DNA of 64,000 nucleotides from Acidobacteriota bacterium (GCA_019244185.1 JAFATB010000020.1:1-64000), one strand, 5' to 3'. Positions 7,859-23,385 are shown, counted from the stretch's first letter. Made by a program: numbers and translations. Notes: generated by a model not told the origin, from the sequence alone.

Positions 7859-7864
7859 GGCTCG

Positions 7865-8728
7865 TCAGAGAAGGTCGGCGAACAGCCGTTCCATCCGGCG
7901 ATAGTAGTAAATGCCGGTGATGAGCACGAGCGGCGACACGATCGCCGCGGAGAGCAGCGCTTCCATCGCCACGGGCGTGCCGAACAGCGTCGCGCGTCCC
8001 GCCTCGATGATCCCGGTCATCGGATTCAGGAGCACGAGAAAGCGGTATTTCGCGGGGATGACGTCGACGGAGTACGCGACCGGCGTGGCGAACATGCCTA
8101 GCTGCAGGACGAACGGAATGAGCACGCGCACGTCGCGATACTCGACGTTCAACGCCGCACACCACAAGCCGACGCCCGTCGCGAGCACCGCGCCCGCGAG
8201 CACGACCACCGGAAAGAGCACGATCTCCGGCCCCGGCAGCACGCGATACCAGATCATCAACGCCGCAAGCAGAACGGCCGAGACGCTGAGGTCGACGAGG
8301 TCGACGATCGTCGCCGCGAGCGGAATGGCGAGGCGCGGGAAATAGACCTTCGAGATGAGGTACGACGCGCCGATGAGGCTGTTCCCCGCGTGCGCAACCG
8401 ACGCGGAGAAGAAGTTCCACAGCAGCAGTCCGGAGAGCACGAAGACGCTGTAGGGCACGTTGCCCGACGCGCGCAAATGCGCGACGCGGTTGAAGATCAA
8501 CGTGAAGATCGCCATCGTGATCAGCGGCTGGCCCATGACCCAGACCGCGCCGAGGAAGGTCTGGCGATAGCGGACCTTGAGATCGCGCCAGGCGAAGATC
8601 CACAGCAGCTCGCGGTAGGCCCAGAGCTCGCGGAGGCCGAGGGCGCGCCAGCCGCGCGACGGCCGGATGACGAGTACCGGCATCGGCTCCGCGGCCACTG
8701 ATCCGTTCGACTCCGTCACGGGCCGCAT
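7865..8728 (-). CDS. wzm: Polysaccharide ABC exporter permease (Wzm/RfbA)
   Basis: RDLKVRYRQTFLGAVW, LISKVYFPR, YRDV and LNPMTGIIE motifs; multiple hydrophobic helices. Start may be 8752. Confidence 0.92.
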   Translation of the reverse strand: MRPVTESNGSVAAEPMPVLVIRPSRGWRALGLRELWAYRELLWIFAWRDLKVRYRQTFLGAVWVMGQPLITMAIFTLIFNRVAHLRASGNVPYSVFVLSGLLLWNFFSASVAHAGNSLIGASYLISKVYFPRLAIPLAATIVDLVDLSVSAVLLAALMIWYRVLPGPEIVLFPVVVLAGAVLATGVGLWCAALNVEYRDVRVLIPFVLQLGMFATPVAYSVDVIPAKYRFLVLLNPMTGIIEAGRATLFGTPVAMEALLSAAIVSPLVLITGIYYYRRMERLFADLL

Positions 8729-8773
8729 CGTACACGAGCGTTTCGCGTTCACGGCGGAGTTATCATCGCAGCG

Positions 8774-8859
8774 GCCCCGGTGGCGGAACCGGTAGACGCT
8801 GCGGACTTAAAATCCGCTGCCGCGTGAGCGGCGTGCCGGTTCGAGTCCGGCCCGGGGCA
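8774..8859 (+). tRNA. tRNA-Leu (anticodon TAA)
   Basis: Acceptor GCCCCGG/CCGGGGC-A, D-arm TGGCGGAACCGGTAGACGC, anticodon arm GCGGA-CTTAAAA-TCCGC, long variable arm, T-arm GCCGG-TTCGAGT-CCGGC. CCA not encoded. Confidence 0.95.
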
Positions 8860-8879
8860 TGGCGCGTCGGGCTGCGCGC

Positions 8880-9515
8880 TCACGGCTCCAGCTGCCGCAC
8901 GACGCGCATCGGATTGCCCGCGACGAGCGTGAAGGCCTCGACGTCTTTCGTGACCATCGTGCCCGCGGAGACGATCGCGCCGCGCCCGATGTGCACGCCT
9001 TTGAGGATCGTCGACTTCGCGCCGATCCAGACGTCGTCTTCGATGACGATGCGCCGCATCGAAACGTGCGTGAAATCGATCTCGACGCGCCGCTCGAAGA
9101 GATCGCGCGCTTCCTCGCGCCGCTGATCCGCGCGCAGCGAGTGCGAGTCGTGATCGAGGATGTCGACGCCATGCGCGATGAGCACGTAATCGCCGATGGT
9201 GATTCCGTCGGCGGCCCAGATGCGCGTCTGCGGCCCGATGTAGCAGTCGCGTCCGATGCGGATCGACGCGTCCGGCGTCAGCACGCGCACTTCACCACGC
9301 ACGTTCGTGTAGTCACCGATCGCGAGCCGGTCGCGCGCGGCGAGGTTCGACAGACTCCCCTCCGGCAGAAGCCGCACCGTCGGCGCGATCGCACCGGCCT
9401 GACGCAGCGCGTCCTCGCGCCGCGTGCTCGGCCGCACGTCGTCGAGATGCTCGAGGCGGCTCCGCAAGCGCAACAGCAGCGGATCCGCGATCTTCCAGAA
9501 CCACTCCCCGATCAC
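8880..9515 (-). CDS. Hexapeptide-repeat (LbH) O-acyltransferase, copy 2
   Basis: [37 protein letters not shown]...VAGNP; clear paralog of 5982-6614 (shared DPLLL..R.RLEHLD N-terminus). Confidence 0.88.
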   Translation of the reverse strand: MIGEWFWKIADPLLLRLRSRLEHLDDVRPSTRREDALRQAGAIAPTVRLLPEGSLSNLAARDRLAIGDYTNVRGEVRVLTPDASIRIGRDCYIGPQTRIWAADGITIGDYVLIAHGVDILDHDSHSLRADQRREEARDLFERRVEIDFTHVSMRRIVIEDDVWIGAKSTILKGVHIGRGAIVSAGTMVTKDVEAFTLVAGNPMRVVRQLEP

Positions 9516-10726
9516 TCCCCCTCCTCGGCCGTCCACGGCAGCACAGGCACCACGCGTGCCGTGCGCCCGTCGCGCGCGGCGATGCTGTTCTGTTCCGTGA
9601 TCGTGAAGTTCAGCACGCCCTCGTGCAGACGTTGCGCGTCCGCGAACGGCTCGGACACCGTCACGAAGTAACGCCCCGGCCGCAATAGCGATCCCGGAAT
9701 CTCGCAGCGCAAGCGCCGCCGTCCGAGCGGCATCGCATGGTTGAGCGTGGGCGTCGCGTCCGTGCTCGCCGATGCGAGCACGACCTCCCCATCCTCGGCG
9801 AGCAACGCGAACGCGAGCCGGTTCGGCGGCATCGCCGCGTGCACCGTGAAGTCGAAGGCGATCTCGAACGCGGCGTCGGCGGGAAACGCGTCGCCTTCCG
9901 CACGCGCACACGTCAGCCGCACCTCGTGATAGCGGAAGGCGGGATTGCGCTCGTCGGGCGGACGCCACACGAGCTCGGACGAGACACCCGACGATAGATA
10001 CGCGGCGACGGTGGACGACGCGGCGCCGTCGCGCACGAGCTTCCCCGCATCGAGCCACAGCGCGCGTTCGCACAGCGCGGTCACGACGCTCATGTTGTGG
10101 CTCACCACGACGACCGTCCTTCCTTCATGCCCGATCGCCTCCATTTTGCCGAGGCATTTCTTCTGGAAGGCGGCATCGCCGACGGCGAGGACTTCGTCGA
10201 CGAGCAGGATTTCCGGATCGACGTGCGCGGCGACGGCGAAGGCGAGCCGCACGAACATGCCGGACGAGTAGCGCTTGACGGGCGTGTCGAGCAGGCGGCC
10301 GATGTCGGCGAACGCGACGATCTCGTCGAACTTGCGGCGGATGTCGGCGCGCGACATGCCGAGGATCGAGCCGTTGAGGAAGACGTTCTCGCGCCCGGTG
10401 AGCTCGGGATGAAAGCCGGTGCCGACTTCGAGAAGGCTGGCGATGCGGCCGTAGACGCGCGCCTCCCCCACGGTCGGCTCGGTGATGCGGCTGAGGATCT
10501 TGAGCAGCGTGCTCTTGCCCGCGCCGTTGCGGCCGACGACGCCGACTACGGCGCCGCGCGGGATGTCGGCGGTGAGGTCGCGCAGCGCCCACAACTCGGA
10601 CGGTGCGGCGCGCCTGCGGAAGAGGCGCCCGGGCTCGGCGAGGATCTCGCGCAACTGGCGCTGCTCCCACGCGGTGCCGATCGCGTAGCGCTTGCCGAGG
10701 TCGTGGATCGTGATCGCAGCGGTCAT
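9512..10726 (-). CDS. wzt: Polysaccharide ABC exporter ATP-binding protein (Wzt), copy 2
   Basis: [35 protein letters not shown]; C-terminal domain paralogous to copy 1. Confidence 0.88.
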   Translation of the reverse strand: MTAAITIHDLGKRYAIGTAWEQRQLREILAEPGRLFRRRAAPSELWALRDLTADIPRGAVVGVVGRNGAGKSTLLKILSRITEPTVGEARVYGRIASLLEVGTGFHPELTGRENVFLNGSILGMSRADIRRKFDEIVAFADIGRLLDTPVKRYSSGMFVRLAFAVAAHVDPEILLVDEVLAVGDAAFQKKCLGKMEAIGHEGRTVVVVSHNMSVVTALCERALWLDAGKLVRDGAASSTVAAYLSSGVSSELVWRPPDERNPAFRYHEVRLTCARAEGDAFPADAAFEIAFDFTVHAAMPPNRLAFALLAEDGEVVLASASTDATPTLNHAMPLGRRRLRCEIPGSLLRPGRYFVTVSEPFADAQRLHEGVLNFTITEQNSIAARDGRTARVVPVLPWTAEEGE

Positions 10727-10816
10727 CGTGCGCGTGAAGCCGGGCGCTTCCGTCGCGGACGCGACATCGTACACGGTCGAGTTATGATTCCGCCGCTACT
10801 TCACTCGGAGGATTCC

Positions 10817-11998
10817 ATGACCACGCAGACCGTTGAACTCACGCCGGGAGCGCCGCTGACGCTGCTCTCCGAAGACGAGCAGATGTTCCAGCAGAGCGTT
10901 CGCGATTTCGCGATCGAGAAGATCCGGCCGCTGGTCCACCAGATGGATCGCGACGCGACGATGTCGAAGGATCTGATCGCGAGTTTCTTCGACCTCGGCA
11001 TCATGGGCATCGAAGTCCCCGACCAGTTCGGCGGCGCCGGCTCGACGTTCTTCACCGCGGTGCTCGTCGTCGAGGAGCTCTCGCACGTCGACGCGTCGTG
11101 CGGCGTGCTCGTCGACGTGCAGAACACGCTCGTCAACAACGCGCTCATCCGCTGGGGCAACGACGATCAGAAGTCGAAGTACCTGCGCATGCTCGCCACC
11201 GATACGGTCGGCGCGTACGCGCTGTCCGAGGCCGGATCGGGATCGGATGCGTTCGCGCTGGCGACACGCGCGCAGGAGAACGGCGATCACTTCGTGCTCA
11301 ACGGCCGCAAGCTGTGGATCACGAACGCGGCGGAAGCGGGCGTGTTCATTGTCTTCGCGAACGCGAACCCCGACGCCGGTTACAAAGGCATCACCGCGTT
11401 TCTCATCGAGCGCGACTTCCCCGGGTTCTCCGTCGGCAAGAAGGAAGACAAGACCGGCATCCGCGCGTCGTCGACGTGCGAGCTGATCCTCGAAGACTGC
11501 CGCGTGCCGCGCGAGAACGTCCTCGGCGAATTAGGCAAGGGCTACAAGATCGCCATCGAGACGCTGAACGAGGGACGCATCGGCATCGGCGCGCAGATGC
11601 TCGGCGTCGCACGCGGCGCGCTCGAACACGCGATCGCGTACACGAAGGAGCGTAAGCAGTTCGGCCAGAAGATCGCCGAGTTCCAGGGCGTGCAGTTCCA
11701 GATCGCGCAGGCCGCGACCGATCTCGAGGCCGCGCGCCTCATGGTCTACAACGCCGCGCGGCTCAAGGACGCCGGCCAGCCGTTCCTCCGCGAGGCGGCG
11801 ATGGCGAAGCTCTTCTCCTCGCAGGTCGCCGAGCGCGTGACGTCGCTGGCCGTGCAGCTCTACGGCGGCAACGGCTACACGAAGGAGTATCCGGTCGAGA
11901 AGTTCTGGCGCGACTCGAAGGTCGGCCAGATCTACGAAGGCACGAGCAACATGCAGTTGCAGACGATCGCGAAAACGATCGTGACCGGCAAGCTGTAG
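10817..11998 (+). CDS. Acyl-CoA dehydrogenase (short/branched-chain type)
   Basis: YALSEAGSGSDA, LNGRKLWITN, GIRASSTCEL, IYEGTSNMQ; SD GGAGG before ATG 10817. Confidence 0.93.
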   Translation: MTTQTVELTPGAPLTLLSEDEQMFQQSVRDFAIEKIRPLVHQMDRDATMSKDLIASFFDLGIMGIEVPDQFGGAGSTFFTAVLVVEELSHVDASCGVLVDVQNTLVNNALIRWGNDDQKSKYLRMLATDTVGAYALSEAGSGSDAFALATRAQENGDHFVLNGRKLWITNAAEAGVFIVFANANPDAGYKGITAFLIERDFPGFSVGKKEDKTGIRASSTCELILEDCRVPRENVLGELGKGYKIAIETLNEGRIGIGAQMLGVARGALEHAIAYTKERKQFGQKIAEFQGVQFQIAQAATDLEAARLMVYNAARLKDAGQPFLREAAMAKLFSSQVAERVTSLAVQLYGGNGYTKEYPVEKFWRDSKVGQIYEGTSNMQLQTIAKTIVTGKL

Positions 11999-12005
11999 GC
12001 GCGCT

Positions 12006-14168
12006 TTAGACGGCGGCCTTCGCGCGCTCTTCCGCGACGACGCCCACGTCCGCGTGAGTCAGATGATCGACGCGCGCGGCGTCGCTGTAGCGCGCGCCGT
12101 GCCGCGCGAGCAGTTCGCGGCTCTCGCTCCGCGCGTCGGCGATCATGCGCAAGTGCCACAGCGGATGGCGCAGCACCGCGCGCCGCGCGTCCGCGCGTCC
12201 CATGGAACTGAGCAGCGAGAAGCGGGCGATCGGCACGAGGTCGCGCAGCCGCAGGCGGAACGGCGGAGCGGCGGCGATGCGCTGGCGGAACATGCACGCG
12301 CGCGCCGACGCGCGGCGAATTTCTTCATAGGGAGCCGTGCGGATCGCGCAGCCGCCGTCGTACGTCGGCGTGTGCTCGATGAAGAGCGACGCATCGGACC
12401 AGATGGTCATTCCGCGCGCGCGCATCCGCGTGGACAGCTCCCAGTCCTCCGCCATGTGCCCGAACGCGAACAGCAGATCGTCGTAGCCGCCCGACTTGCG
12501 GAAGTACTCGCGCTCGAACGCGACGCCGCCGCTTCCCGCGCGATTCACGGGAAAGATCGACGAGCCGGCGATCGCGCGTCCGCGTCGATGAAAGCGCTGC
12601 CACGCGTGCAGCGCGGCCTCGCGCTTGCCGGGGAAATGCACGATCGGCCAGAGGCACCGCACTTGCGGATGGCGGCGGAAGGCGTCGAGCATCTGCGCGA
12701 CGAACTCCGGGCCGATCACTTCGTCGTCGTCGAGGAAGAGCACGTGCGTCGACGTCGCGCGCAGGAATCCGGCGTTGCGCGCCGCCGCGGCGTTCGGTTG
12801 GTCGAGCATGACGCGCGTCAGGCGCACGCGCGTCTCGCGCAGCACGTCGTCGAGAAAGCCCGGCGCGTTCTGATCGACGACGAGCACTTCGGACGGCGTG
12901 ACGGTTTGCGCCTCGATCGACGCGAGCAACCGTCGCAGCGCCTCCGTCCGTCGATAGGTCGGGATGACGACCGCGAGCGAGATGCGCGTCGAGCGCGGCG
13001 GCGCGTGCTCGTGTCCGCGCCCGCCGTACCGCGTCGCGAGACGGATCGGACGCAGCATCCAATGCAGCCACCCGAGCCCGCGCGGCAGCCGGAGCCACGC
13101 GCGATCGCGCGCGTTCGGCGCGAGCTGGCGGTGCAGATACGTCGCGCGCTGGTCGTGCGTCTCGCGCACGGCGAGCTCGCAGCGCAAGCGCGCAATCAAC
13201 CCCGGCGCGTGCTCGCCGCGCGAAGCGGCATCCATCCGCTGCACCGCCAGCGCCGCCGCCCTCGCAAGTCGCCTCGGCGACGACGACAGGCACCGCCGCA
13301 CATCCGCCGGCACCGGCGCGTCGAAGAGCTCCGCCGCGAGATGCAGGCCGAGGGCGACGCGATGGCGCGCGTCGATCGCGGTGGCGCGCTCGACGAGCGC
13401 GTCCCAGTCGAATGCCGGATGCGCGCGCAGCAGCGCCGCGAGATCGATCGTCCAGAGCAGCCGGCTCCACATGTGCCGCGCACCGTGCAAACAGAGATAC
13501 AGCAGCAGATCCTCGGCTGCGATGACCGGCACCGCGCGTCCGAACAGCGGACGCGGCTCGCAGCGCGCGAGCACTGCCTCGAGATCGACCGGCGCGGTGT
13601 AGAAGTTGCCGATCAGCTCCGTATGCAGCTCGACCAGCGTGCCCTGCGCGGCGGTCGCGGGGAGCAGATGCGCCTCGCTCTCCCACCGCTCGTGATCGTG
13701 TTCGTCGATGGCCGGTTCGACGCGCTGATAGCCGGCGTCACCGAGGATGGCGACGGCGCGATCGAGATCGGCGGCGCGGAGGATGAGATCGAGATCGCCG
13801 CTCGCGCCGCGCATGCCCACGTGGCCGTACGCGGTCGCGGCGAGCACGGGACCTTTCACCGGCAGCGCGGTGATGCCGTGGGTCTCGAAGAGATCGAGCA
13901 GCACGCGCAGCTGGCGCGTGAGCACGAGCGTGCGCTCGGTCTGGCTGCGCGCGAGCGTGCGCACGCGCGTCACGACGTCGTCGGGCGCGCCGCTGGAACG
14001 GAGCACGCGGTCGAGCAGCACGATCGCGCCGTGCTGTTCCGCCGCGGCGACGAGCGTGTTCGCATCGAGATCGCGCGGCCATGTCCCGCGGTCGGCGGTG
14101 CCGAGCGCCGCACGGACCGCGGCGGCGAGAAACTGAAGCTCGGGTGCGCGCAGCTCGATCATCGTCAT
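12006..14168 (-). CDS. Fusion of NTP_transf_5-type nucleotidyltransferase (N-term) and GT2 glycosyltransferase (C-term)
   Basis: N-term LPVKGPVLA..AYG..GMRGASGDLDLIL, VELH, HGARHMWSRLLWTIDL; C-term VVIPTYRR, VVDQ, NAAAARNAG, FLDDD. Confidence 0.82.
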   Translation of the reverse strand: MTMIELRAPELQFLAAAVRAALGTADRGTWPRDLDANTLVAAAEQHGAIVLLDRVLRSSGAPDDVVTRVRTLARSQTERTLVLTRQLRVLLDLFETHGITALPVKGPVLAATAYGHVGMRGASGDLDLILRAADLDRAVAILGDAGYQRVEPAIDEHDHERWESEAHLLPATAAQGTLVELHTELIGNFYTAPVDLEAVLARCEPRPLFGRAVPVIAAEDLLLYLCLHGARHMWSRLLWTIDLAALLRAHPAFDWDALVERATAIDARHRVALGLHLAAELFDAPVPADVRRCLSSSPRRLARAAALAVQRMDAASRGEHAPGLIARLRCELAVRETHDQRATYLHRQLAPNARDRAWLRLPRGLGWLHWMLRPIRLATRYGGRGHEHAPPRSTRISLAVVIPTYRRTEALRRLLASIEAQTVTPSEVLVVDQNAPGFLDDVLRETRVRLTRVMLDQPNAAAARNAGFLRATSTHVLFLDDDEVIGPEFVAQMLDAFRRHPQVRCLWPIVHFPGKREAALHAWQRFHRRGRAIAGSSIFPVNRAGSGGVAFEREYFRKSGGYDDLLFAFGHMAEDWELSTRMRARGMTIWSDASLFIEHTPTYDGGCAIRTAPYEEIRRASARACMFRQRIAAAPPFRLRLRDLVPIARFSLLSSMGRADARRAVLRHPLWHLRMIADARSESRELLARHGARYSDAARVDHLTHADVGVVAEERAKAAV

Positions 14169-15121
14169 CAGGCAGCGAGCGCGTCGACGAGCCGCGGCAG
14201 TTGCGCAAGATCGTCGCCCGCTTCGACGGTGTACATGGGAACCGCGTCGGCGACGCGCGCGCAGGCGCGCATGGTCATCGCGCGGCGCGACGCATCGAGA
14301 AAACGGCCGGAGTAGATGTTCTGCAGCAGCAGCGGTAACGCGTTGCGCGGCGGCACGGCGCGGATGCGCGGCTCTCCCCCGCCGGCGCGGCGCGGCTGCA
14401 GCAGGTAGATCGCCCGCAGCGCTCGCGGCTCGGGACAGAACGTGCCGTCGTCCGGCGAGAGCGCGACGAAGCGCTTGTCGCCGAGGATCGCGGCGGCGAA
14501 AACGCGCGGAAGCGTGTCGGCCGCGAAACCGGCGGCGCGCGCGGAGTCGGCGTAGAGACGCAGGCGCGGATATCCGGGCTGCACGCGGATGCCGTCGTCG
14601 TCGATCGCGAGCGCGGCGAGATCGTCGCTGAGGAGCGCGTGACCGCGCGCGACGAAGGCCGCGGCGGTCGTCGACTTGCCGGCGCCGGGCGTGCCCATGA
14701 GCGCGATCGCGCCGCCGTCCGTCGCGAGGACGCTCGCGTGCAGCAGCGGCACGCGGCGCAGATGCAGCGCGGCGGCGAGTCCGGGGCCTTGCAGCACGGA
14801 CGGGATGTCGTCGAGCATCGCGTCGTCGGTCCAGCGCACGGTGAGACGCGTCGCGTCGTTCGCGAAAGCCACGCTCCAGAAGCCGCCGTCGCGCTCGTCG
14901 ACATAGCGCAGCAGCCACGAGCCGTCGTCGCGATGCCAGAGCGTCTCGAAGCCGTTCTGCCAGAACGGCTCGTCGGCGCATTGGAACGCGTCGCTGGTGC
15001 GGCCCGCGAAGTCGATGACGATCTCCGGCGCGTCGCCGCGGCGCGGCGCGAGCCCCGGCAGCGCGCGGTTCGAGCGCAGCGTCAGGCCGTAGAGCCCGTA
15101 CTCGTGGTCAAAGCCGTTCAT
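14168..15121 (-). CDS. HPr kinase-like kinase (lasso-peptide kinase family)
   Basis: YGLYGLTLRSN start, PLLHASV, Walker A GTPGAGKSTT, LLSDDL, PGYPRLRL. Confidence 0.85.
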   Translation of the reverse strand: MNGFDHEYGLYGLTLRSNRALPGLAPRRGDAPEIVIDFAGRTSDAFQCADEPFWQNGFETLWHRDDGSWLLRYVDERDGGFWSVAFANDATRLTVRWTDDAMLDDIPSVLQGPGLAAALHLRRVPLLHASVLATDGGAIALMGTPGAGKSTTAAAFVARGHALLSDDLAALAIDDDGIRVQPGYPRLRLYADSARAAGFAADTLPRVFAAAILGDKRFVALSPDDGTFCPEPRALRAIYLLQPRRAGGGEPRIRAVPPRNALPLLLQNIYSGRFLDASRRAMTMRACARVADAVPMYTVEAGDDLAQLPRLVDALAA

Positions 15122-16692
15122 GTCGGAAGGAATGGGACGAGCGCTGCCGGCCGCCGGTCCCGCGGCACGAGCTCGGGCGAGACGAGGCAGGCGCGCGCGT
15201 AAAGCTCGTCCAGCTCGCTCGAATCCGAATTCGTTTCCTGGAGGACCCGGATGATCGCGGACAGTGCGAAGTAATCGTACGGCTGTTCGCGCAGAACCGC
15301 GCGAAAAAATGCGGATTTGTCGCGCTGCGCCGATGCCGACAAACGGAGGCGGATGAGCGGCGAGGCGACGGCGTCGAGATAGCGCGCGGCGTCGGCGGGA
15401 CGCACGCGCCGCGCGAGCCGCGCCTTCAGCTCCGCCGCGAGCTCGGCGTACAGCGGCGGCCACGCGATGCGTTCCGCGTGCGCGAACGCCTCGTCGTAGC
15501 GCGCGAGCGCTTCGAGCGTCGTCGCGACCGCCCACTGCGCCTGCACGTAGCCGGGATGCGCGTCCGCAATCGCGCGCGCGGTCTCCAGCGCTGCGTCCGG
15601 CTTCTGCATCGAAAACTCGAGGAGCCGCGACGCTTCGGGAGGCGCGGGGTCGATGACGAGCGGCGCATCGGCAACCGGTTGTGAAGGCAGCAGCGCGCGA
15701 TAGGCGTCGATGCGTTGTTGTCGCAGCGTCGCTTCGCCGCGCTCGCGTTGAGCCCACGCGTACGCGCGATCCGCAAACGCGTGGCATTCCGCGCGGTCGG
15801 CGTACAGCGCTTCGAGCGCGGCGCGCAGTTCGTCCGCGTCGCGGAAGAGCCGCGCGCGATCCGCGTGCGGGCGATGCAGCGGTGCGTCTTCGAGAAGCGG
15901 CACAACGGCGGACGCCGCGTATGTCGCGAACTTCGTGTCGGTGCGTCCGGCGTTGAAGCCGGAGTCGTGCAGCGGCGCGAGACCGGCGTGCAGTCCGCGC
16001 ACGAATTCGAGGTACGCGTCGTACGCGCCGAACGGCGCGACGCGCGTCTGTTCCGGCGCGATCGCGGCGAAGTGCCGCGCGAACATCGCCTCATCGCCCA
16101 TGAAGGCGAACGTCGCGTCGCGGTGCGCGGCGCAGAAGGCGACGATCGCCGGCGCGATGCGCGCGAGATCGGTTTCGTGCGACGTCGTGCCTCCCCAGCC
16201 GAAGACGAAGCCGTCCGGCTTGACCGGCCGCGGCGACGCGATGGGCACGTAAGGATCGAAGACGATCACGTTCGGATTCACATGGCGAAAGAGCTCGGCG
16301 AGGCCGGGCGCGTAGACCTGGACGGCGTCGCAGCGCGAGGCGTAGTGCAGCAGGTTCTGGCGCACGAGCGGGCTGCGGAAGAGATGTCGTTTCGGCAGCC
16401 AGTCGCCGAGGTCGAGGAAGTTGTCGCTGAACTCGAAGAGCGTCGGGAGGTTGCGCGCGCGGCGCAGGCGGAGCAGCGCGTCGATCTCGCGGTGCGGCAG
16501 CATGTGCACGACGACGAGATCGCTCGCGAGCACCGCGTCCGCGAACGCGGGATGCAGCGGATCGAGCGCGGCGACGCTCCAGCCTTCGTTTCCGTCGAGC
16601 AGCCAACGCAGCGACGCGACGTGCTGGATGTAGACGCCGTGGTTCTCGCCGCGCAGCTTCGACGGATGAACGATGACCAGCCGCCGCGTCAT
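15118..16692 (-). CDS. Glycosyltransferase-like (GT-B) protein with C-terminal helical/TPR-like region
   Basis: FEFSDNF, FGWGGTTSHETDL, AGLAPLHDSGFNAGRTDTKFATYAA resemble divergent GT4-like proteins; helical C-terminus. Confidence 0.65.
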   Translation of the reverse strand: MTRRLVIVHPSKLRGENHGVYIQHVASLRWLLDGNEGWSVAALDPLHPAFADAVLASDLVVVHMLPHREIDALLRLRRARNLPTLFEFSDNFLDLGDWLPKRHLFRSPLVRQNLLHYASRCDAVQVYAPGLAELFRHVNPNVIVFDPYVPIASPRPVKPDGFVFGWGGTTSHETDLARIAPAIVAFCAAHRDATFAFMGDEAMFARHFAAIAPEQTRVAPFGAYDAYLEFVRGLHAGLAPLHDSGFNAGRTDTKFATYAASAVVPLLEDAPLHRPHADRARLFRDADELRAALEALYADRAECHAFADRAYAWAQRERGEATLRQQRIDAYRALLPSQPVADAPLVIDPAPPEASRLLEFSMQKPDAALETARAIADAHPGYVQAQWAVATTLEALARYDEAFAHAERIAWPPLYAELAAELKARLARRVRPADAARYLDAVASPLIRLRLSASAQRDKSAFFRAVLREQPYDYFALSAIIRVLQETNSDSSELDELYARACLVSPELVPRDRRPAALVPFLPT

Positions 16693-16693
16693 C

Positions 16694-17809
16694 TCACGCC
16701 GTCTTCTGCCAGTACACGGCGGTCCAGTCGACGCGGCGCAGCGGCGCGGTGATGCCGCGCGACGCGCGGAAGTCGTCGACGGCGCGGCGGCAGACGACGA
16801 ACGCGTGGTAGTCGTCGACGACGACGAAACCGCCCGGAACGACTTTGTCGTAGAGCGCGGTCAGCACGTCCATCGTCGACGCGTAGAGATCCGCGTCGAT
16901 GCGCAGCAGCGCGAGGCGTTCGACCGGCGCCGCGGCGAGCGTCTCCGAAAACCAGCCGGGGATGAACTGCACCTCGTCGCTGAGCAGGTCGTACGTGCGG
17001 AAGTTGTCGCGCACGGCGTCGAGACTCGCGGCGAGCCACGGCTGTTTCGACTCGCTGAAGTCGATGCCGGCGTCGGGCTCAGACACCGGCTCGGGCAATC
17101 CCGCGAACGAGTCGGCCACCCACATGCGACGGTGCGGCTCGCCGTACGCGACCTGCAGCGCGCGCATGAAGATCGACGCGCCGCCCTGACACGCGCCCGC
17201 TTCGAGGAAGTCGCCTTCGACGCCGGCGGCGAAGAGCTCCGACGCGCACCATTCGAGGTTCTCGAGGCGGCGCAGGCCGACCATCGTGTGCGAGTAGCGC
17301 GTGACGAGGCGGCGGAAGTTCTGCCCGTCGCGCTTGCAGGCGACGATCTCGTCGAACGTCGGCGCGTCGACGTAGCGGAGATCGCGCAGGCGCCGCTGGT
17401 CGGCGAGGCGGTCGCCGGTCGTGGGAGTGTGCTCGAGGTGATAGAGCCGCAGCTCGTGCTCGGGATAGATGAGATTGACGAGCGCCTTCTTGAGCAGATC
17501 GAGATAGCGACGGCGCATCCCCGCGCTCGCATCATCCGCATCGCGCACGTCGACGAAGCCGAGCTCGCGCATGCGCCGCACGAAGGCCTCCGCCGACTCG
17601 GCACCTTCCTCCGCCTCCGCGGCGAAGCGCGCGCGCAATTCGCCGAGCGTGATCGGCTCGCGCAGCGACTCGAACATCGCCGCGGCGGTGTGATTGAGGC
17701 GGTAGCCGAGCCCCGTGTGCGGATGCGTCAGAACCGCGACGTCACCTTCGCGGACGAGCGACGGCGGACGGACGAAGGAGACGGGCTCGATGAGGAGGGA
17801 TTCGGACAT
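16694..17809 (-). CDS. PqqD/RRE-like domain fused to a TylF/MycF/NovP-family O-methyltransferase
   Basis: N-term ~85 aa YRLNHTAAAMFESL...ITLGEL...AEAFVRRMRELGFV is PqqD-like. C-term HTMVGLRRLENL, GDFLEAGACQGG, VADSFAGLP, GWFSETL, LRIDADLYAST, GGFVVVDDY are TylF motifs. Confidence 0.85.
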   Translation of the reverse strand: MSESLLIEPVSFVRPPSLVREGDVAVLTHPHTGLGYRLNHTAAAMFESLREPITLGELRARFAAEAEEGAESAEAFVRRMRELGFVDVRDADDASAGMRRRYLDLLKKALVNLIYPEHELRLYHLEHTPTTGDRLADQRRLRDLRYVDAPTFDEIVACKRDGQNFRRLVTRYSHTMVGLRRLENLEWCASELFAAGVEGDFLEAGACQGGASIFMRALQVAYGEPHRRMWVADSFAGLPEPVSEPDAGIDFSESKQPWLAASLDAVRDNFRTYDLLSDEVQFIPGWFSETLAAAPVERLALLRIDADLYASTMDVLTALYDKVVPGGFVVVDDYHAFVVCRRAVDDFRASRGITAPLRRVDWTAVYWQKTA

Positions 17810-17840
17810 AAAAAGAAGCGCCGCGGACGAGCCGCGGCGC
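17810..17840 (-). terminator. Intrinsic terminator/attenuator after the precursor gene
   Basis: Minus strand GCGCCGCGG-CTCGT-CCGCGGCGC-TTCTTTTT directly before the methyltransferase ATG. Confidence 0.65.
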
Positions 17841-17865
17841 GCGTACCGGGACGTTGTCAGTACCG

Positions 17866-18012
17866 TTAGACGGTGTAAATCCCGAGGTCCGAGACGCCGC
17901 CGAAGATGTACGCCGCCTCGGTGGCCGCGTAGTCGATTTCCTCGATCGTCGGCGCTTCCCACGGACGCTTCTCCGTCGTCGTTTCAATGGTGTCTGGCTT
18001 CTTCTGGTTCAC
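17866..18012 (-). CDS. Lasso peptide precursor (48 aa): MNQKKPDTIETTTEKRPWEAPTIEEIDYAATEAAYIFGGVSDLGIYTV
   Basis: Hand-translated. SD GGGGAGGA, GTG start 18012, TAA stop 17866-17868; lasso leader motif WxxPxI; Thr near the leader end; lies directly after the cyclase gene. Confidence 0.88.
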   Translation of the reverse strand: MNQKKPDTIETTTEKRPWEAPTIEEIDYAATEAAYIFGGVSDLGIYTV

Positions 18013-18067
18013 CCTGTCCTCCCCGAATCACTACATGCTGCAAGTGAAGCATCTGCACCAGGTTACG

Positions 18068-19948
18068 TCAAGCACAATCTGCGAGAAACAACGCGAACAG
18101 CAGTGTGCGCGCGAACATCGGTGCGACAGCGAGCGCGGCCGCCGGCGCGCCGTCGCGAACGAGCGTCCAGCGGCGCTGCATCCCATCGAGATCGAGATAC
18201 TCGCGAACGGCCGGCGACGACGCGAGCGCGTTCATCGCGGCGTCGATCTCCGGCGCGTCGGCGCGCAACCGCAACGCGAGGTCCGCCCCCTGGCTGCCTC
18301 GCCGCGTGTTCCACTGCACCTCGGGCGGCAGAATGCCTTCCATCGCGCGGCGGATCAGCCAGCGATCGCGGTCGCCGCGCGCGAACTGCTCGTCCGGAAT
18401 GGCGAGACAGAACTCGAGCAGGCGGACGTCCGCGGTCGGATCGACGACCTCGAGTCCGTACCCTGCCCCGCTCTCGTGCCAGATCGCGCCGATCGGATTG
18501 ATGTCGGGCAGCAGCACGCGCAGCCGCTGCGCGCGCACGTCGAGGACGCCGCTCTGCAGCGGATCGTAGCCGGCCGCGCGCATGCGGTCGCCGATGCGCA
18601 TGCGCCGCGCGAACGCGGGATGCATGACGTCGTGGCGCGCGAGGATGCCTTCGGACCAGCCGCGGCGGAACGCGAATGAATATGCGCGCGCCCGCAGCGG
18701 ACGCGCGAGCTGCGCGGAAACCGCGCGCGCGAACGAGGTGCGCCGGTTGCGCTGAAATTCGCGCAACGCACGGTACGTGTCGAGCCAGCGTCCGCGCAGA
18801 AACGACCGCAGCGCGTGCTGCTGATCGCCGCTCCACGAGACGCCGCCGTTGCCGAGCTGTCCGGTCAGCAGCACGCCGGCGTCCGCGCGTTGCGATTCCG
18901 CGAGCAGGTCGATGATCCAGTGCAGGTTGCCCGCGGCGAACTCCGGCTCGTCGTGCAGAAAGAGCGAGCGCCGGAACGCGTCCAGCGTCGTGACGCGCTC
19001 CGCGCGCAGCGGACGGTGATCCTCGATGCCGCAACGCTCCGCGACGACATGCGCGAGCCGCCATTCGTCGACGACGACGCGCGGCAGCAACTGCGCGATC
19101 TCCGCGAAACGCGGCACGGACGTGAACGCCGTCAACCGCAATGGCGCCGCCGCGCGCGCCGCCAGCGCCGTCACCGAGCCGGAGTCGAGTCCAGAGCTGA
19201 GCGTCGTTGCGATGCGCCGGCTCGTGCGGATCCGTGCGCGGACGGCGGCGTCGTAGCGCGCGAGAAAGGCCTCGACGTAAGCGGCATCGTTCGGCAGCCG
19301 CAACTCCGGCAAGTCTTCCGGATGCCAGTAGCGCGTGAGCCGCGTGCCGCTCGCCGTGACGACGAGGTGATGCCCCGGCGGCAGGCGAAAGACGTCTTCG
19401 TGCAGCGTCGCCGCGCCGTCCGTCGGCCAGAACGCGAGATGCTGCGCGAGCCGCAGCTCGTTGAGCCGCCGCGGCACATAGGACAGCGCGAAGAGCGCCT
19501 TGCGACTGGACGCGAATGCGAACGCGTCGCCGCTGCGATGGTGATAGAGCGCGGTGTTGCCGAAGTGATCGCGCGCGACGAACAAACGCCGCGCGCGCGC
19601 GTCCCACGCCGCAAAGGACCAGTCGCCGTACAGCCGCGTGCACGCGTCTTCGCGCCAGCGTTCGTACGCGGCGGCGACGAGCGCGCGGTCGTCGACGTCG
19701 CCGAAGAGCGGCGTCAGTTCGTCGCGATTGTCGAGACGCGCGGTGGCGACGACGATCTCGCCCTTCGCGAGCCGCAGCACCGCGTCGTGCGCGGGCTCGT
19801 CGTGCGAGACGCGGCAGCCGATGGCGGCATGCGCGTCGGAAAATGCTCCGCCGTCGGGGCCCCAGTATGCGATGGCGTCGCGCATCGCCGCCGCTTCGCG
19901 CGCGTCCACCTCGCTATCGAAACGTACGAGCCCGTAGATCGCGCTCAA
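18068..19948 (-). CDS. Lasso peptide cyclase (asparagine synthetase-like, C protein)
   Basis: TTG start overlapping the B2 stop; N-term MSAIYG lacks the catalytic Cys of glutamine-dependent AsnB; ARDHFG, LSSGLDSGS PP-loop, LLTGQLGN, RWLIRRAMEGILP. Confidence 0.9.
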   Translation of the reverse strand: MSAIYGLVRFDSEVDAREAAAMRDAIAYWGPDGGAFSDAHAAIGCRVSHDEPAHDAVLRLAKGEIVVATARLDNRDELTPLFGDVDDRALVAAAYERWREDACTRLYGDWSFAAWDARARRLFVARDHFGNTALYHHRSGDAFAFASSRKALFALSYVPRRLNELRLAQHLAFWPTDGAATLHEDVFRLPPGHHLVVTASGTRLTRYWHPEDLPELRLPNDAAYVEAFLARYDAAVRARIRTSRRIATTLSSGLDSGSVTALAARAAAPLRLTAFTSVPRFAEIAQLLPRVVVDEWRLAHVVAERCGIEDHRPLRAERVTTLDAFRRSLFLHDEPEFAAGNLHWIIDLLAESQRADAGVLLTGQLGNGGVSWSGDQQHALRSFLRGRWLDTYRALREFQRNRRTSFARAVSAQLARPLRARAYSFAFRRGWSEGILARHDVMHPAFARRMRIGDRMRAAGYDPLQSGVLDVRAQRLRVLLPDINPIGAIWHESGAGYGLEVVDPTADVRLLEFCLAIPDEQFARGDRDRWLIRRAMEGILPPEVQWNTRRGSQGADLALRLRADAPEIDAAMNALASSPAVREYLDLDGMQRRWTLVRDGAPAAALAVAPMFARTLLFALFLADCA

Positions 19949-20394
19949 CGCGCGGCCCCGTCGGCGAACGTCGAGACGACGGCGTAACGCGCGCGCTCGG
20001 CGCCGCCGGTGAGGTAGTAGTCGCCGCTGCGTACCCACGCGTGCGCTTCGACCTTCGTCTCGCCGCGCGCGACGCCGAGGTAGAGCGTGTTCGGGATGCG
20101 GCGGAAGCGCAGCATGAGCTTCGCGGCGAACGCCTGCTCGAGACACTTGCAACGCCACGGCGCGCGGCGGCTCACCGCGCCGATCGCCCACGCGATCCGG
20201 CGGATCGCATCGGCATGGCGCGCCTCGCCGCTCTTCGGCGACTCCTGCATGTGCGCGCCGAGGCGGCGCGAGAGAGCGTTGAACGGCACGAGCAGGATCG
20301 TCACGCGGCCGAGCCCCAGCCACACCGTGGCCTCGGCGAGCGCGAGCCAGTCGCGCCACGTGAGGCGGAGGACGACGCTACGGTTCTTCGACAA
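19945..20394 (-). CDS. Lasso peptide leader peptidase (B2, transglutaminase-like)
   Basis: APWRCKCLEQAFAAKLML...LYLGV...EAHAWV Cys/His motifs. Start uncertain (20394 or 20415). Confidence 0.92.
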   Translation of the reverse strand: MSKNRSVVLRLTWRDWLALAEATVWLGLGRVTILLVPFNALSRRLGAHMQESPKSGEARHADAIRRIAWAIGAVSRRAPWRCKCLEQAFAAKLMLRFRRIPNTLYLGVARGETKVEAHAWVRSGDYYLTGGAERARYAVVSTFADGAAR

Positions 20395-20662
20395 GGCGGA
20401 CGAGGCGCTTCGCATGCAGGCTCTGCAGGAACGGCAGCACGTCCGCCTCGCACTGCGACGCGCTGACGTCGTAGCGGTTCTCGAGCGTGGAGCAGAGCGC
20501 GCTGACGCGCGTCGGCTGCTCGAGCTGTTCCCAGATCGCGGCGGCGATCTCGTCGAGCACGAAGTAGGTTCCGGTTTCCATGTCCATCATCGCGAGCTCG
20601 TCGCCCATCGGAGCGCTGACGAGATCGCCGGTGCGGACGACGACGGCGTCGCGGCTGATCAT
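20378..20662 (-). CDS. Lasso peptide RRE (B1, PqqD family)
   Basis: MGDELAMMDMETGTYFVLDEIAAAIWEQLEQP...YDVSASQCEADVLPFLQSL, a typical PqqD pattern. Confidence 0.92.
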   Translation of the reverse strand: MISRDAVVVRTGDLVSAPMGDELAMMDMETGTYFVLDEIAAAIWEQLEQPTRVSALCSTLENRYDVSASQCEADVLPFLQSLHAKRLVRLVEEP

Positions 20663-20805
20663 GCGGGGCGGATTATCGCATGTCGTCGCGGCGCGCCTTT
20701 GCGCGGACCACTTCCCGACCCATCGGCGCAAACATTGAACCCTCATTCAGCCCGTTTCGGCTCAATGCACGACCCTCGGCCGGCGCAACTCGTTGAAAAT
20801 ACGTA

Positions 20806-20821
20806 CGGCATTGCCGTTGAA
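20806..20821 (+). promoter_or_regulatory. Possible sigma54-type -24/-12 promoter
   Basis: CGGCATTGCCGTTGAA (GG-N10-GA, imperfect -12) about 30 nt upstream of the ATG at 20854. Confidence 0.25.
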
Positions 20822-20853
20822 CATAGAGACGCGCTTCAGGAGGCACGGAAATC

Positions 20854-21678
20854 ATGAAGTTGCGCGCTCTGCTCCTGGTCGGCGTCACGCTCCTCTTCGG
20901 CTCGTCTCTCTCCGCAAAAACCGGCGTCGTCTTCATCCACGGCAAAGGAGGCGCGGACCTCGCGCAGGCCGCCGTCGCGCGCGCGTACTGGGGCGACGAC
21001 ATGCTCCGCGCCTCGACGAAAGGCTTCACGATCCCGTACCTCGTCTGCTCGTACGACGGCACGCAGATCATGTGGGTGGCCGCGGGCCAGGTCGCGGGCG
21101 AGATCTACACCTGGATGAACGCGAACGCGATCGACGACATCGTCGTGGAGACGCATTCGTTCGGCGGCGTGGTCATCCGCTGGATCTTGTCGAACCCGAC
21201 GTACGACTCGCGCTACCAGCCGATCATCAACCGCATCCGCTGGGTGAACTCGATCGCGCCGCCGAACAAAGGCTCCGAGGCGGCGAACCTCGCGGGAACG
21301 CTGTCGGGCTCGTGGCTCACCGGCTGGATGATCGATCTCGTCGGCCAGAACAACGATTCGACGCGCAACTGCACGACCTCGTCGATGGCGTACTACAACC
21401 AGTACTACCTCAAGGGAACGGCGGGACGTCCGGCGCTGCCGAAGACGATCTACAACATCGCCGGCACGGGCCTCTGGAACGACTTCGCGCATTCGGAGGA
21501 CTACGGTCTGGCGACGCTCTCCGGCATCGCCGGAATGCCGGGCGAAGACGACGGCATGGTGTCGCAGTACAGCGCGCAGGCGGTGGGCGTGGTGTGGTTC
21601 ACGACGACGGCGAATCACCACCACAACCGCCGCAACGATTACCAGAAGATCGGCAACTCGCTGGCCACCGATTTCTGA
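20854..21678 (+). CDS. Secreted alpha/beta hydrolase (lipase-like)
   Basis: Signal peptide; VVFIHG, nucleophile elbow THSFGG, PNKGSEAA, EDDGMV, NHH. Confidence 0.82.
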   Translation: MKLRALLLVGVTLLFGSSLSAKTGVVFIHGKGGADLAQAAVARAYWGDDMLRASTKGFTIPYLVCSYDGTQIMWVAAGQVAGEIYTWMNANAIDDIVVETHSFGGVVIRWILSNPTYDSRYQPIINRIRWVNSIAPPNKGSEAANLAGTLSGSWLTGWMIDLVGQNNDSTRNCTTSSMAYYNQYYLKGTAGRPALPKTIYNIAGTGLWNDFAHSEDYGLATLSGIAGMPGEDDGMVSQYSAQAVGVVWFTTTANHHHNRRNDYQKIGNSLATDF

Positions 21679-21695
21679 GAAGGAGACGCACGACG

Positions 21696-22778
21696 ATGAA
21701 ACGCATTCTCTTCTGCACGCTCCTTTTCGCACCGTCTCTCTTCGCCGCCGATGTCACCGGTGCGTTCGAAGCGAACACCAAGTACGAGGCGCCGGTCGCG
21801 CACGCGCCGGCGAACGTCTCGCGCATGTTCGCGCGCGAGGTGCACGGCAACTCGATCGCCATTCCCGCGACCGGCGACGGCGGGATGATCGTGCTCGCGA
21901 TGACGCCGTCCGGCGCCGCGCGCACGCGCCTCACGACACCCGACGGCGCGGTGCTCGAGCCGTCGGAGAACGGCTCGCTCGAACGCGGACTGCGCCGCTT
22001 CGCCATCGACGCGAACGAGTCCGCGGAGCTCGGCCTGCCGCGCGGCGCGAATCACGTGCTGCACGTGCTGCACACGACCGCCGCGCGCTATCGCCTCGAT
22101 CTCGACACGCGCGAGCGCGCCGTTGTCGTCGCTGCGGAGCCGGACAGCTCCGTGACGCTCTCGACGTGGGCGGAGCCGCTCTCGCGGCAGCCGGGCGAGC
22201 CGGTGACGCTCGTCGCGGAGCTGCGCGACGGCAACGCGCCGATCACCGGCGCGCACGTCGTGGCGCGGCTCGCGTCGCCGGACGGTCACGCGTTCGATGC
22301 AGTCGCTCTGGTCGAGGAAGGCAACGGCGTCTATCGCGCGACGCTCGCCGACCTCCCGTCGCACGCGCCCGGCGCGTGGCAGGCGCGTTTCGACGCGGAC
22401 GGTCTCACGCCACGCGGCGCGGAGTTCGCGCGCACCGGCTCGGGCGAGCTCGTCGCTGAACGCGGCGCGGCGGACGTGCATCCGCGTTCGATCCACGCGG
22501 ACGTCGTCGGCGACGTGCTGCGCGTCAGCGCGAATGCGAACGTCCACGTCGCCGGCAACTATCGCTTTGATGTGATCGTCGCGCACGACGGAACGTCGCT
22601 GGCGTGGGGCGAGTCGGCGCGCGAGCTCGCGGCCGGCAACGCGCCGCTCGCCGTCGACATCCCGCTCGCGCTCATCGGCAACCGTTCTCCCGACGACTTG
22701 CTCCTCGACGTCCGCCTCCTCGGGCTCGACGCCGTGAACATGGGCGTGGCCGCGTCTTACCGCCGGTCGCCGCGCTGA
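21696..22778 (+). CDS. Secreted beta-rich hypothetical protein (choice-of-anchor X / DUF4785-like), probable hydrolase partner
   Basis: SD AAGGAG; signal peptide MKRILFCTLLFAPSLFA; EGNGVYRA motif; follows the hydrolase closely on the same strand. Confidence 0.6.
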   Translation: MKRILFCTLLFAPSLFAADVTGAFEANTKYEAPVAHAPANVSRMFAREVHGNSIAIPATGDGGMIVLAMTPSGAARTRLTTPDGAVLEPSENGSLERGLRRFAIDANESAELGLPRGANHVLHVLHTTAARYRLDLDTRERAVVVAAEPDSSVTLSTWAEPLSRQPGEPVTLVAELRDGNAPITGAHVVARLASPDGHAFDAVALVEEGNGVYRATLADLPSHAPGAWQARFDADGLTPRGAEFARTGSGELVAERGAADVHPRSIHADVVGDVLRVSANANVHVAGNYRFDVIVAHDGTSLAWGESARELAAGNAPLAVDIPLALIGNRSPDDLLLDVRLLGLDAVNMGVAASYRRSPR

Positions 22779-23245
22779 TGTTTCGCCAGACGCTGCAGGA
22801 AATCAGCGGCGATGCCGCCGCTGGTTTTCCGCAGCGTGAGCAGATAGACCGCGATCGCGACGATGCCGCCGAGGGCGCCGAGCGTGCCGAACTCGCGCTC
22901 GTGCGGGAAGAACGGCCAGAGCGTGAAGAGCACCGCGCCGATGACGCCGGCGAGGAGGAACAGCACGCGCTGCGCTTTCGGCGCGTCGAGATCGCGGTTG
23001 GCGACGAGACGAACCGTGGCCGTCGCGACGTCGGAGACGGCGGCGTCGGGTGCCCACGTCAGTGTGCACTCCACGGCGCCGGCGGACGCGTTGCCGCGCC
23101 GCAGCGGCAGCGCGAAGTCGCGCGCGCGTTCGCGTTCGGCCGTGACTTCGCCGCCGTAGAGCTCGACCAGCTCGCCGATCGCGGTCTCGATTCCGGCGAC
23201 CGGCACGCGGTCCTCGGTGAGCTCCAGCGGAGCGCGTTCGTTCAT
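22757..23245 (-). CDS. Hypothetical membrane protein (2 TM)
   Basis: SD AGGAG; two hydrophobic segments near the C-terminus. Confidence 0.65.
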   Translation of the reverse strand: MNERAPLELTEDRVPVAGIETAIGELVELYGGEVTAERERARDFALPLRRGNASAGAVECTLTWAPDAAVSDVATATVRLVANRDLDAPKAQRVLFLLAGVIGAVLFTLWPFFPHEREFGTLGALGGIVAIAVYLLTLRKTSGGIAADFLQRLAKHQRGDRR

Positions 23246-23385
23246 TCGTTTCTCCTAAGGAACCTCTGCACAAGTCGGGGGCATGCCGCTGATGGCGATT
23301 ACGGGTCGAGATCGAGAAGCGAGGAGGAGGCGATGCGGTGCCATCGTTGACGACGAGCGACGCGGAGCTCGGCCCGTAAGCGCCA

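Follow-up and report, generated by a model that had tools for sequence, protein, structure and literature searches.

Lasso peptide gene clusters with an HPrK-like kinase are exemplified by the paeninodin cluster (pade) of Bacillota. Its kinase uses the precursor as substrate, a C-terminal Ser is extremely conserved in kinase-linked lasso precursors, and a His-Lys-Asp-Asp residue set is essential in lasso kinases (PMC9266682). In pseudomycoidin, encoded by the psmCAKB1B2ND cluster of Bacillus pseudomycoides, a phospho-Ser carries one or two hexoses, PsmN being required, and this phospho-sugar has been proposed to lock the thread (PMC6993621). The authors left it undecided whether PsmN transfers the sugar or supplies a separate glycosyltransferase, and they state that the psm cluster encodes no clear glycosyltransferase (PMC6993621); how enzymes of this type put a sugar on phospho-Ser has stayed unresolved (PMC6993621, PMC13381572). 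The davasins (igt cluster, Streptomyces davaonensis) are polyglycosylated on Ser by IgtG, a polysaccharide deacetylase/glycosyltransferase family 2 (GT2) protein that acts on the mature lasso, and together with the pseudomycoidins they make up the only two kinds of glycosylated lasso peptides described as of 2025 (PMC11912497). The current analysis concerns a locus at 12006..20662, on the minus strand of a 64,000-nucleotide stretch (hereafter, the window) from an Acidobacteriota bacterium (GCA_019244185.1, JAFATB010000020.1:1-64000). It encodes the predicted lasso core proteins B1, B2, and cyclase (C), a precursor peptide (A), a TylF-type O-methyltransferase (MT) with its own ribosomally synthesized and posttranslationally modified peptide (RiPP) recognition element (RRE), a glycosyltransferase-like protein with a GT-B fold and a TPR-like helical domain (GT-B/TPR), an HPrK-like kinase (K), and a PsmN-type nucleotidyltransferase of the NTP_transf_5 family (N) fused to a GT2 domain (N-GT2).

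This locus is very probably a genuine lasso cluster whose kinase, glycosyltransferase, and methyltransferase genes act on the peptide. Similarly to the paeninodin systems (kinases PadeK, ThcoK, and SyanK), it has split B1 and B2 genes, a WxxP leader with the Trp 13 residues before the Thr, and an HPrK-like kinase with the His-Lys-Asp-Asp set. Unlike them, it has an invariant Tyr in the peptide tail, genes for the RRE-TylF methyltransferase and the GT-B/TPR protein, and no linked ATP-binding cassette (ABC) exporter, and it occurs not in Bacillota but in uncultured bacteria of the Acidobacteriota, Actinomycetota, Gemmatimonadota, and other groups. With pseudomycoidin it shares the presence of kinase and NTP_transf_5 genes in a lasso cluster; it differs in that N is fused to a recognizable GT2 domain, in that a dedicated GT-B/TPR protein and a sugar-type O-methyltransferase are added, and in that N is optional, being present in 16 of the 31 related loci that could be evaluated. 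An earlier note, made from the sequence alone, had used the kinase and NTP_transf_5 genes to link the locus to the paeninodin and pseudomycoidin systems, and the link holds on the domain matches and the His-Lys-Asp-Asp set. The davasin cluster likewise encodes a GT2-family domain. However, no deacetylase domain was matched here, the GT2 domain is fused to a nucleotidyltransferase, and deacetylase-GT2 proteins match only the GT2 part of N-GT2, at ∼28 to 30% identity; since the methyltransferase has an RRE, modification is more likely to take place on the linear peptide with its leader than on the mature lasso, as in davasins. TylF, MycF, and NovP, from macrolide and aminocoumarin pathways, have the TylF fold and the acidic and glycine-rich motifs in common with the methyltransferase, from which they differ with respect to the N-terminal PqqD/RRE domain found here. 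The linear polyphosphorylated peptide (LPP) clusters of Bacillota (lppA-K-B-S-D-N) contain a comparable tailoring module of RRE, HPrK-like kinase, and NTP_transf_5 protein but are without the cyclase and B2 and have a signal-peptidase-like leader peptidase, a YxxP leader, and an MsbA-like exporter; LPP N showed no detectable activity without its presumed partner, which fits the need for an accompanying transferase (PMC13381572).

The genes were placed by third-codon-position GC and open frames (the window is ∼67% G+C), and all coding signal within 12006 to 20662 lies on the minus strand, with the third-position GC in agreement with the frames throughout. In gene order, the locus comprises B1, the predicted lasso RRE, a leader-binding chaperone of the PqqD family (20378..20662, 94 amino acids, ATG at 20662); B2, the transglutaminase-like leader peptidase (19945..20415, 156 amino acids); C, the Asn-synthetase-like macrolactam cyclase (18068..19948, 626 amino acids, TTG start); the precursor gene A (17866..18012, 48 amino acids, GTG start behind GGGGAGGA); the PqqD(RRE)-TylF O-methyltransferase (16694..17809, 371 amino acids, with the RRE at ∼17552 to 17734 and the TylF domain at ∼16703 to 17512); the GT-B/TPR protein (15118..16692, 524 amino acids); the HPrK-like peptide kinase (14168..15121, 317 amino acids); and N-GT2 (12006..14168, 720 amino acids, stop at 12006). 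B1 and B2 overlap by 38 nucleotides, B2 and C by 4 (the TTG start of C lies over the B2 stop), and K and N by 1; the spacing is 1 nucleotide between the methyltransferase and GT-B/TPR genes and 0 between the latter and K, and only the precursor gene is flanked by gaps, of 55 and 56 nucleotides. The eight same-strand, mostly overlapping or abutting genes listed in the earlier note are reproduced exactly, limits included, by the gene model and the domain matches, and all of its domain calls proved correct, even "GT-like/TPR" for a protein without a Pfam match, where the call agrees with the AlphaFold2 model and the Foldseek search. Between the precursor and the tailoring genes lies a terminator-like hairpin (17818..17840, minus strand; 9 G-C pairs, a loop of 5, and a T-rich tail). 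A scan of the region found 6 terminator-like sites, with 4.6 expected by chance, so that the location of this hairpin, rather than the count of such sites, is suggestive. No sigma-70-like promoter was detected in a scan of 11900 to 21000, a result that is uninformative in this phylum.

The B1 protein matches PF05402 PqqD in Pfam with an E value of 2.6e-21, its best lasso model in NCBIfam being the Bacillus-type NF033536 lasso_PqqD_Bac (3.9e-20, under the model cut-off), and B1 orthologues hold the same position in related loci. B2 matches PF13471 Transglut_core3 (3e-28) and exceeds the cut-off of NF033537 lasso_biosyn_B2 (4.7e-30); it gives the only B2 match in the genome (5.3 Mb, 98.9% complete). 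The cyclase has Asn_synthase (3.8e-25) and GATase_7 (2.3e-16) domains in Pfam and matches NF033535 lass_lactam_cya at 1.6e-92, under the 525-bit cut-off of that model. The lasso core gene set of B1, B2, and C is encoded together, and on these matches the three proteins are firmly predicted to be the lasso maturation enzymes.

The precursor, MNQKKPDTIETTTEKRPWEAPTIEEIDYAATEAAYIFGGVSDLGIYTV, has the leader motif K15, W18, P21, I23, and T31, the ring residue Asp42, and the tail Tyr46-Thr47-Val48. If the leader ends at E32, the leader residues occupy positions K-18, W-15, P-12, and T-2. The B1 protein of a paeninodin-like cluster binds a K-18/W-15 WxxPxL motif in which the Trp is nearly invariant (PMC13381572), and the spacing of K15, W18, P21, and I23 equals that of this motif. 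In an alignment of 23 precursors (that of the window and 22 from other loci, the latter with 18 distinct cores), no row departs from W18, P21, D42, or Y46, and T31 is kept in 22 rows; comparison of the sequences identifies the leader as one of the paeninodin WxxP type. The precursor frame of one metagenome contig (L036, 747 to 1000) continues beyond the conserved leader into unrelated sequence, probably as the result of a frameshift or of faulty assembly.

The methyltransferase combines a TylF domain (5.4e-83) with an N-terminal PqqD domain at residues 26 to 86 (Pfam; 1.3e-5, 25.8 bits versus a cut-off of 23.4), and B1 queries cross-match its N terminus in many loci. Among the 150 best representatives at 50% identity, ∼17 cover the N-terminal domain, and the rest match the TylF part only. 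The catalytic residues 172 to 369 match the solved structures 4cdz (1.8e-60, the best match, an unnamed O-methyltransferase), NovP (4.9e-54), and MycF (1.1e-52). In the alignment with 4cdz, the acidic motifs D-x-D and DD are identical and an E-x-G-x-x-x-G-G stretch is conserved; the acidic residues, as in MycF and NovP, are presumably the metal site, and the glycine-rich stretch is presumably the site for S-adenosylmethionine (SAM). To our knowledge, all characterized TylF-family enzymes methylate sugars, so that a sugar hydroxyl may be the acceptor here as well, and the fusion to an RRE points to a substrate borne by a peptide. The proposal of a sugar O-methyltransferase with its own RRE is therefore borne out at the level of family and structure matches. 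Lasso clusters are known to encode methyltransferases of the lassomycin type, which act on the C-terminal carboxyl, and of the protein isoaspartyl methyltransferase (PIMT) type, which form aspartimide (PMC9266682); the protein of the window matched only TylF and Methyltransf_24 in Pfam and had no match to the StspM/LasF or isoaspartyl types.

No Pfam or NCBIfam family was matched by the 524-amino-acid GT-B/TPR protein. It has at least 130 relatives of similar length in a metagenomic protein collection (E value of ≤1e-3), with 43 to 85% identity among the 120 matches listed, and a few of these homologues carry PF13524 Glyco_trans_1_2 or PF14559 TPR_19. An AlphaFold2 model built from 32 homologues (predicted local distance difference test [pLDDT], 94.6; predicted template modeling score [pTM], 0.92) has a GT-B fold in residues 1 to ∼335 and an all-helical repeat domain in residues ∼350 to 524. 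The best Foldseek matches were PimA, methylmannose-polysaccharide mannosyltransferase, GlgM, SenB, BshA, MshA, and WaaG, with E values from 2.6e-9 to 1e-7; the probability was 1.00, the target-normalized TM-score 0.6 to 0.76, and the sequence identity to these solved GT4-type enzymes 11 to 17%. The model, with its two Rossmann-like domains, is that of a GT-B protein whose nearest neighbors are GT4-type enzymes. Residues G15, E16, R77, E87, D90, N91, G165, W166, G168, R250, and D252 are invariant in the family. A complex prediction for this protein and the precursor, both entered as alignments and run without controls, gave a score of 0.01 (mark, 0.32), which counts neither for nor against an interaction.

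The kinase matches TIGR04352 HprK_rel_A (2.8e-14) and Hpr_kinase_C (6.9e-6), both under the cut-off, and among 32 kinases of the family H128, the P loop G143 to S150 with K149, D166, D167, R188, and K216 are kept in at least 95% of the rows. The His-Lys-Asp-Asp set of the kinases for paeninodin-like peptides is thus represented by H128, K149, D166, and D167. A PDB sequence search with the kinase returned weak matches to the HPrK P loop only (E value, ∼5e-3), plus spurious armadillo-repeat matches.

N-GT2 is one continuous coding frame in which PF14907 NTP_transf_5 (2e-50; residues 34 to 283, at 13320 to 14069) is followed from residue 398 by PF00535 Glycos_transf_2 (2.1e-18; ∼12366 to 12977), and it supplies the NTP_transf_5 gene expected of a pseudomycoidin-like cluster. 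The PDB search gave generic GT2 matches only and none for the NTP_transf_5 part. A fusion search of a protein collection of 5.8 billion clusters (lengths of 396 to 1260 amino acids), in which the 8000 candidates sharing the most words were scored, found NTP_transf_5 and GT2 together in only 2 of the scored clusters, namely the window protein and one that is 84% identical to it. A single protein of 625 amino acids (P0126) had NTP_transf_5 joined to a class I SAM methyltransferase. In the genome of a sister organism, the N and GT2 parts are separate open reading frames of 346 and 319 amino acids, and other lineages have N as a free-standing gene, in some cases encoded on the opposite strand, so the GT2 domain is, from these sequences, a lineage-specific addition. 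The fusion joins the two activities physically and argues that N and a glycosyltransferase work in one pathway. Both glycosyltransferase domains named in the earlier note are present, but they do not play an equal part in the system: the GT-B/TPR protein is core to the family, and GT2 occurs in the lineage of the window only. A second NTP_transf_5 gene of the same genome (G000:C24:14185-14925; L057, 6081 to 7232) has a gene for a class I SAM methyltransferase nearby, whereas RRE, kinase, and lasso genes are absent from its surroundings.

The GT-B/TPR protein was used to search 61 genomes, including 34 others of the same genus, 3 of which encode full-length orthologues (52 to 58% identity); four other matches were partial or weak. 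In one of the three, the whole cluster occupies the same chromosomal site, between genes for an M61 peptidase and an acyl-CoA dehydrogenase, with the flanking genes 63 to 87% identical and the cluster genes only 45 to 59%. Scans with the GT-B/TPR alignment yielded 24 loci from a genome collection and 21 from metagenomes. These 45 loci, which include several near-duplicates as well as the three same-genus genomes and hence are not independent of one another, were scored by tblastn with the window proteins and with a hidden Markov model for N, a locus being evaluable for a gene where the contig reaches far enough. They are labeled as Thermoanaerobaculia, Thermoleophilaceae, Solirubrobacteraceae, Longimicrobium/Gemmatimonadota, Allosphingosinicella, Bradyrhizobium, Bryobacterales, and Deinococcales. 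Wherever it is visible, the order is B1-B2-C-A-MT-GT/TPR-K, with the methyltransferase gene present in 34 of 37 evaluable loci, the kinase gene in 36 of 40, and the cyclase gene in 23 of 28. Most cases of missing genes come from three distant matches to the GT-B/TPR protein (L027, L035, and L053; 25 to 37% identity). With the window cyclase as the query, no cyclase was found within three further loci (L020 from Allosphingosinicella, L029, and L052) that contain an RRE, a precursor or methyltransferase gene, and the GT-B/TPR and kinase genes; these may be cyclase-less, linear variants or have the cyclase elsewhere in the genome.

The arrangement goes far beyond chance, as dozens of unrelated contigs show this order of genes as well. 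Judged by this order, the kinase, GT-B/TPR, and RRE-methyltransferase genes are clearly co-inherited with the lasso core across phyla, and the check for synteny with lasso genes in related genomes, named in the earlier note, came out in favor of its reading. A sequencing-run search with the whole cluster listed six DNA runs, from metagenomes of rhizosphere, rock, root, and soil, and not a single RNA run.

The precursor alignment also bears on the site of modification and on the size of the ring. The invariant Tyr46 sits 3 or 4 residues past the ring Asp and is followed by Ser or Thr at Tyr+1 in 19 of the 23 precursors and by a C-terminal Ser at Tyr+2 in the other 4. The conserved C-terminal Ser of paeninodin-like precursors is a feature of neither the window peptide nor its family. 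From T31 to the ring Asp, the distance is 10 residues in 15 rows, which makes the Asp core position 9 if the Thr is at -2, and 11 residues in 7 of the 23 (the window, L021, L043, L044, L050, L023, and L034), which makes it position 10. For the latter group, the options are leader cleavage one residue farther on and a ring of ten residues; the precursor of L023 favors the later cut, and that of L034 favors the 10-residue ring.

The following scheme, which we consider to have a probability of about 0.5, would account for this set of genes. The B1 protein and the RRE of the methyltransferase would both bind the WxxP leader, and tailoring would take place on the linear, leader-bearing precursor, since the paeninodin kinase uses the precursor (PMC9266682) and the methyltransferase has a leader-binding domain. 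The kinase would phosphorylate a hydroxyl residue beside Tyr46, which is Thr47 here and elsewhere the Ser or Thr at Tyr+1 or the Ser at Tyr+2. N-GT2 and the GT-B/TPR protein would then add one or more sugars, either on the phosphate as in pseudomycoidin or on a neighboring hydroxyl, and the TylF-type enzyme would O-methylate a sugar hydroxyl; a sugar epimerase/dehydratase beside B1 in two Thermoleophilaceae loci was counted in favor of the scheme. Finally, B2 would remove the leader and C would close the ring from the new N terminus onto Asp42. Because the tail has only six residues, the bulky modified Tyr-Thr region would serve as the plug that holds the thread. Overall, the reading of the locus as one operon for a class II-type lasso peptide that is tailored near its C terminus is about as likely as not.

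Several observations weigh against this scheme. Every one of its chemical steps is read from family membership, as is the phospho-linked, extended, O-methylated glycan proposed in the earlier note, and the kinase, cyclase, and B1 matches all fall under the curated NCBIfam cut-offs. The C-terminal Ser that is the acceptor in the precedents named by the earlier note, paeninodin and pseudomycoidin, is absent: the window peptide ends in Tyr-Thr-Val, and a Ser end is found in only 6 of the 23 precursors. The only hydroxyls in the tail are those of Thr47 and Tyr46, there being no Ser, while the characterized relatives of the kinase act on Ser, and S-to-T and S-to-Y variants were not substrates for LppK (PMC13381572). 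Asp42, the sole acidic candidate for ring closure, is core position 10 under the Thr-2 rule (9 if the cut is one residue later), outside the positions 7 to 9 on which reported lasso rings close (PMC9266682). N is missing from 15 of the 31 loci evaluable for it. In line with the earlier note, the cluster is not adjoined by a gene for a lasso-type exporter or isopeptidase; none recurs among the flanks of the related loci, and no exporter or immunity gene is linked to it. Finally, the methyltransferase and glycosyltransferase are separable, as in a locus with the order C-A-GT/TPR-K and no methyltransferase gene (L049) and in a database protein that joins the methyltransferase to the kinase (P0159), so the methyl acceptor need not be a sugar added by the GT-B/TPR protein.

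Among the other explanations, one that is possible, although rather less likely than the scheme above, assumes two separate decorations: the GT-B/TPR protein would O-glycosylate Tyr46 or Thr47 from an NDP-sugar, the TylF-type enzyme would methylate that sugar, and the kinase, with or without N-GT2, would modify another hydroxyl. All 23 precursors offer the neighboring conserved hydroxyls that this arrangement calls for (the invariant Tyr plus Ser/Thr at +1 or Ser at +2), the GT-B/TPR gene is kept in the 15 evaluable loci without N, and the structural neighbors of its product are ordinary GT4-type enzymes that use NDP-sugars; a precedent for Tyr O-glycosylation in a RiPP is provided by cacaoidin (PMC11912497). 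The kinase gene, however, immediately adjoins the GT-B/TPR gene in 36 of 40 evaluable loci, which suggests a common site.

It is quite unlikely that the methyl acceptor of the TylF-type enzyme is not a sugar but, for example, a phosphate ester made by the kinase, the Tyr hydroxyl, or a carboxylate, with the glycosyltransferase as an independent add-on. The RRE does mark the enzyme as directed to a peptide, and L049 has the glycosyltransferase and kinase genes without it. In the 711-amino-acid P0159, PqqD, TylF, and HPrK-like kinase domains occur in one protein with no glycosyltransferase between the methyltransferase and kinase parts, and its last 316 residues give an end-to-end alignment with the window kinase (E value, 4e-28). 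However, the source genome of P0159 may encode a glycosyltransferase elsewhere, or the protein may result from two neighboring genes having been joined in the reading; furthermore, the catalytic domain matches the deoxysugar O-methyltransferases NovP and MycF (E value, ∼1e-53), in line with the sugar acceptors of all characterized TylF-family enzymes that we know of. A 584-amino-acid protein (P0160) looks like a cut-off copy of a P0159-type fusion.

It is highly improbable that the glycosyltransferases and the methyltransferase serve a cell envelope glycan and merely lie beside a paeninodin-like cluster for a phosphorylated lasso peptide, as might be suggested by the ABC-2 exporter set, hexapeptide transferase, and GT1 gene located 1 to 8 kb downstream (3900 to 10774) and by the mention of lasso clusters embedded in glycan loci in PMC13381572, given that the methyltransferase and GT-B/TPR genes stand between the precursor and kinase genes in at least 6 lineages with unrelated flanks, that an RRE is fused to the methyltransferase, and that the ABC-2 genes located downstream here do not accompany the cluster in the sister genome (L021).

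The flanking genes vary between lineages, the epimerase/dehydratase of the two Thermoleophilaceae loci being NAD dependent. In the window, the polysaccharide-type export set on the minus strand at 3900 to 10774 consists of two ABC ATPases, an ABC-2 permease, a hexapeptide acyltransferase, and a GT1 protein, and a convergent gene for the acyl-CoA dehydrogenase lies at 10802 to 11998 on the plus strand. The ABC-2 transporters at 6611 to 10774 were considered as the exporter of the cluster and rejected, as they are not beside it in L021. An M61 glycyl-aminopeptidase with a PDZ domain adjoins the cluster (window, 22757 to 25158; L021, 3832 to 5984; L013, 6700 to 8472), and a Longimicrobium locus likewise has an M61 peptidase next to it; in Thermoanaerobaculia, a 162-amino-acid protein of no known family adjoins the cluster as well. 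In the sister genome, this M61/162-amino-acid neighbor directly adjoins B1 and shares its strand, and the gene for the smaller protein stops ∼40 nucleotides before B1, which leaves no room for the plus-strand pair found in the window between that gene and B1 (20854 to 22778), comprising a 274-amino-acid protein without a family match and a YtkA/FixH-like protein. A role of the M61 peptidase in leader or peptide processing is possible. Farther away are genes for a 1043-amino-acid TPR-CHAT protein (25732 to 28863, plus strand) and for an 1831-amino-acid protein with Ser/Thr kinase, AAA_16, TPR, GAF, and sigma-54 activator domains (30772 to 36267, minus strand).

No description of this combination of genes was found in the full-text literature searched, a scope that did not extend to subscription papers and supplements, in agreement with the earlier note, which did not recognize it as characterized; likewise, we know of no characterized lasso peptide from Thermoanaerobaculia and the other uncultured soil lineages represented here, although no search was aimed at this point. 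The cluster family provides a dedicated glycosyltransferase along with a methyltransferase of the sugar type that has a leader-binding domain of its own, and its conserved Tyr-Ser/Thr motif is a putative acceptor distinct from the known C-terminal Ser. Taken jointly, the parts would describe a phylum-spanning family in which a phosphate-linked, O-methylated sugar plug on Tyr-Ser/Thr takes the place of bulky side chains, the NTP_transf_5-GT2 protein performs a two-step phospho-glycosylation (the nucleotidyltransferase prepares and the glycosyltransferase completes), and the subgroup of the window has a macrolactam ring of 10 residues, a size beyond that of all reported rings; that all of this holds together is doubtful. 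The natural nucleotidyltransferase-GT2 fusion makes the question of PsmN function directly testable, and if the two-step reading is true, that question would be settled. Similarly, should the 11-residue spacing between the Thr and the Asp reflect a true 10-membered ring, the known limits of lasso cyclases would be extended.

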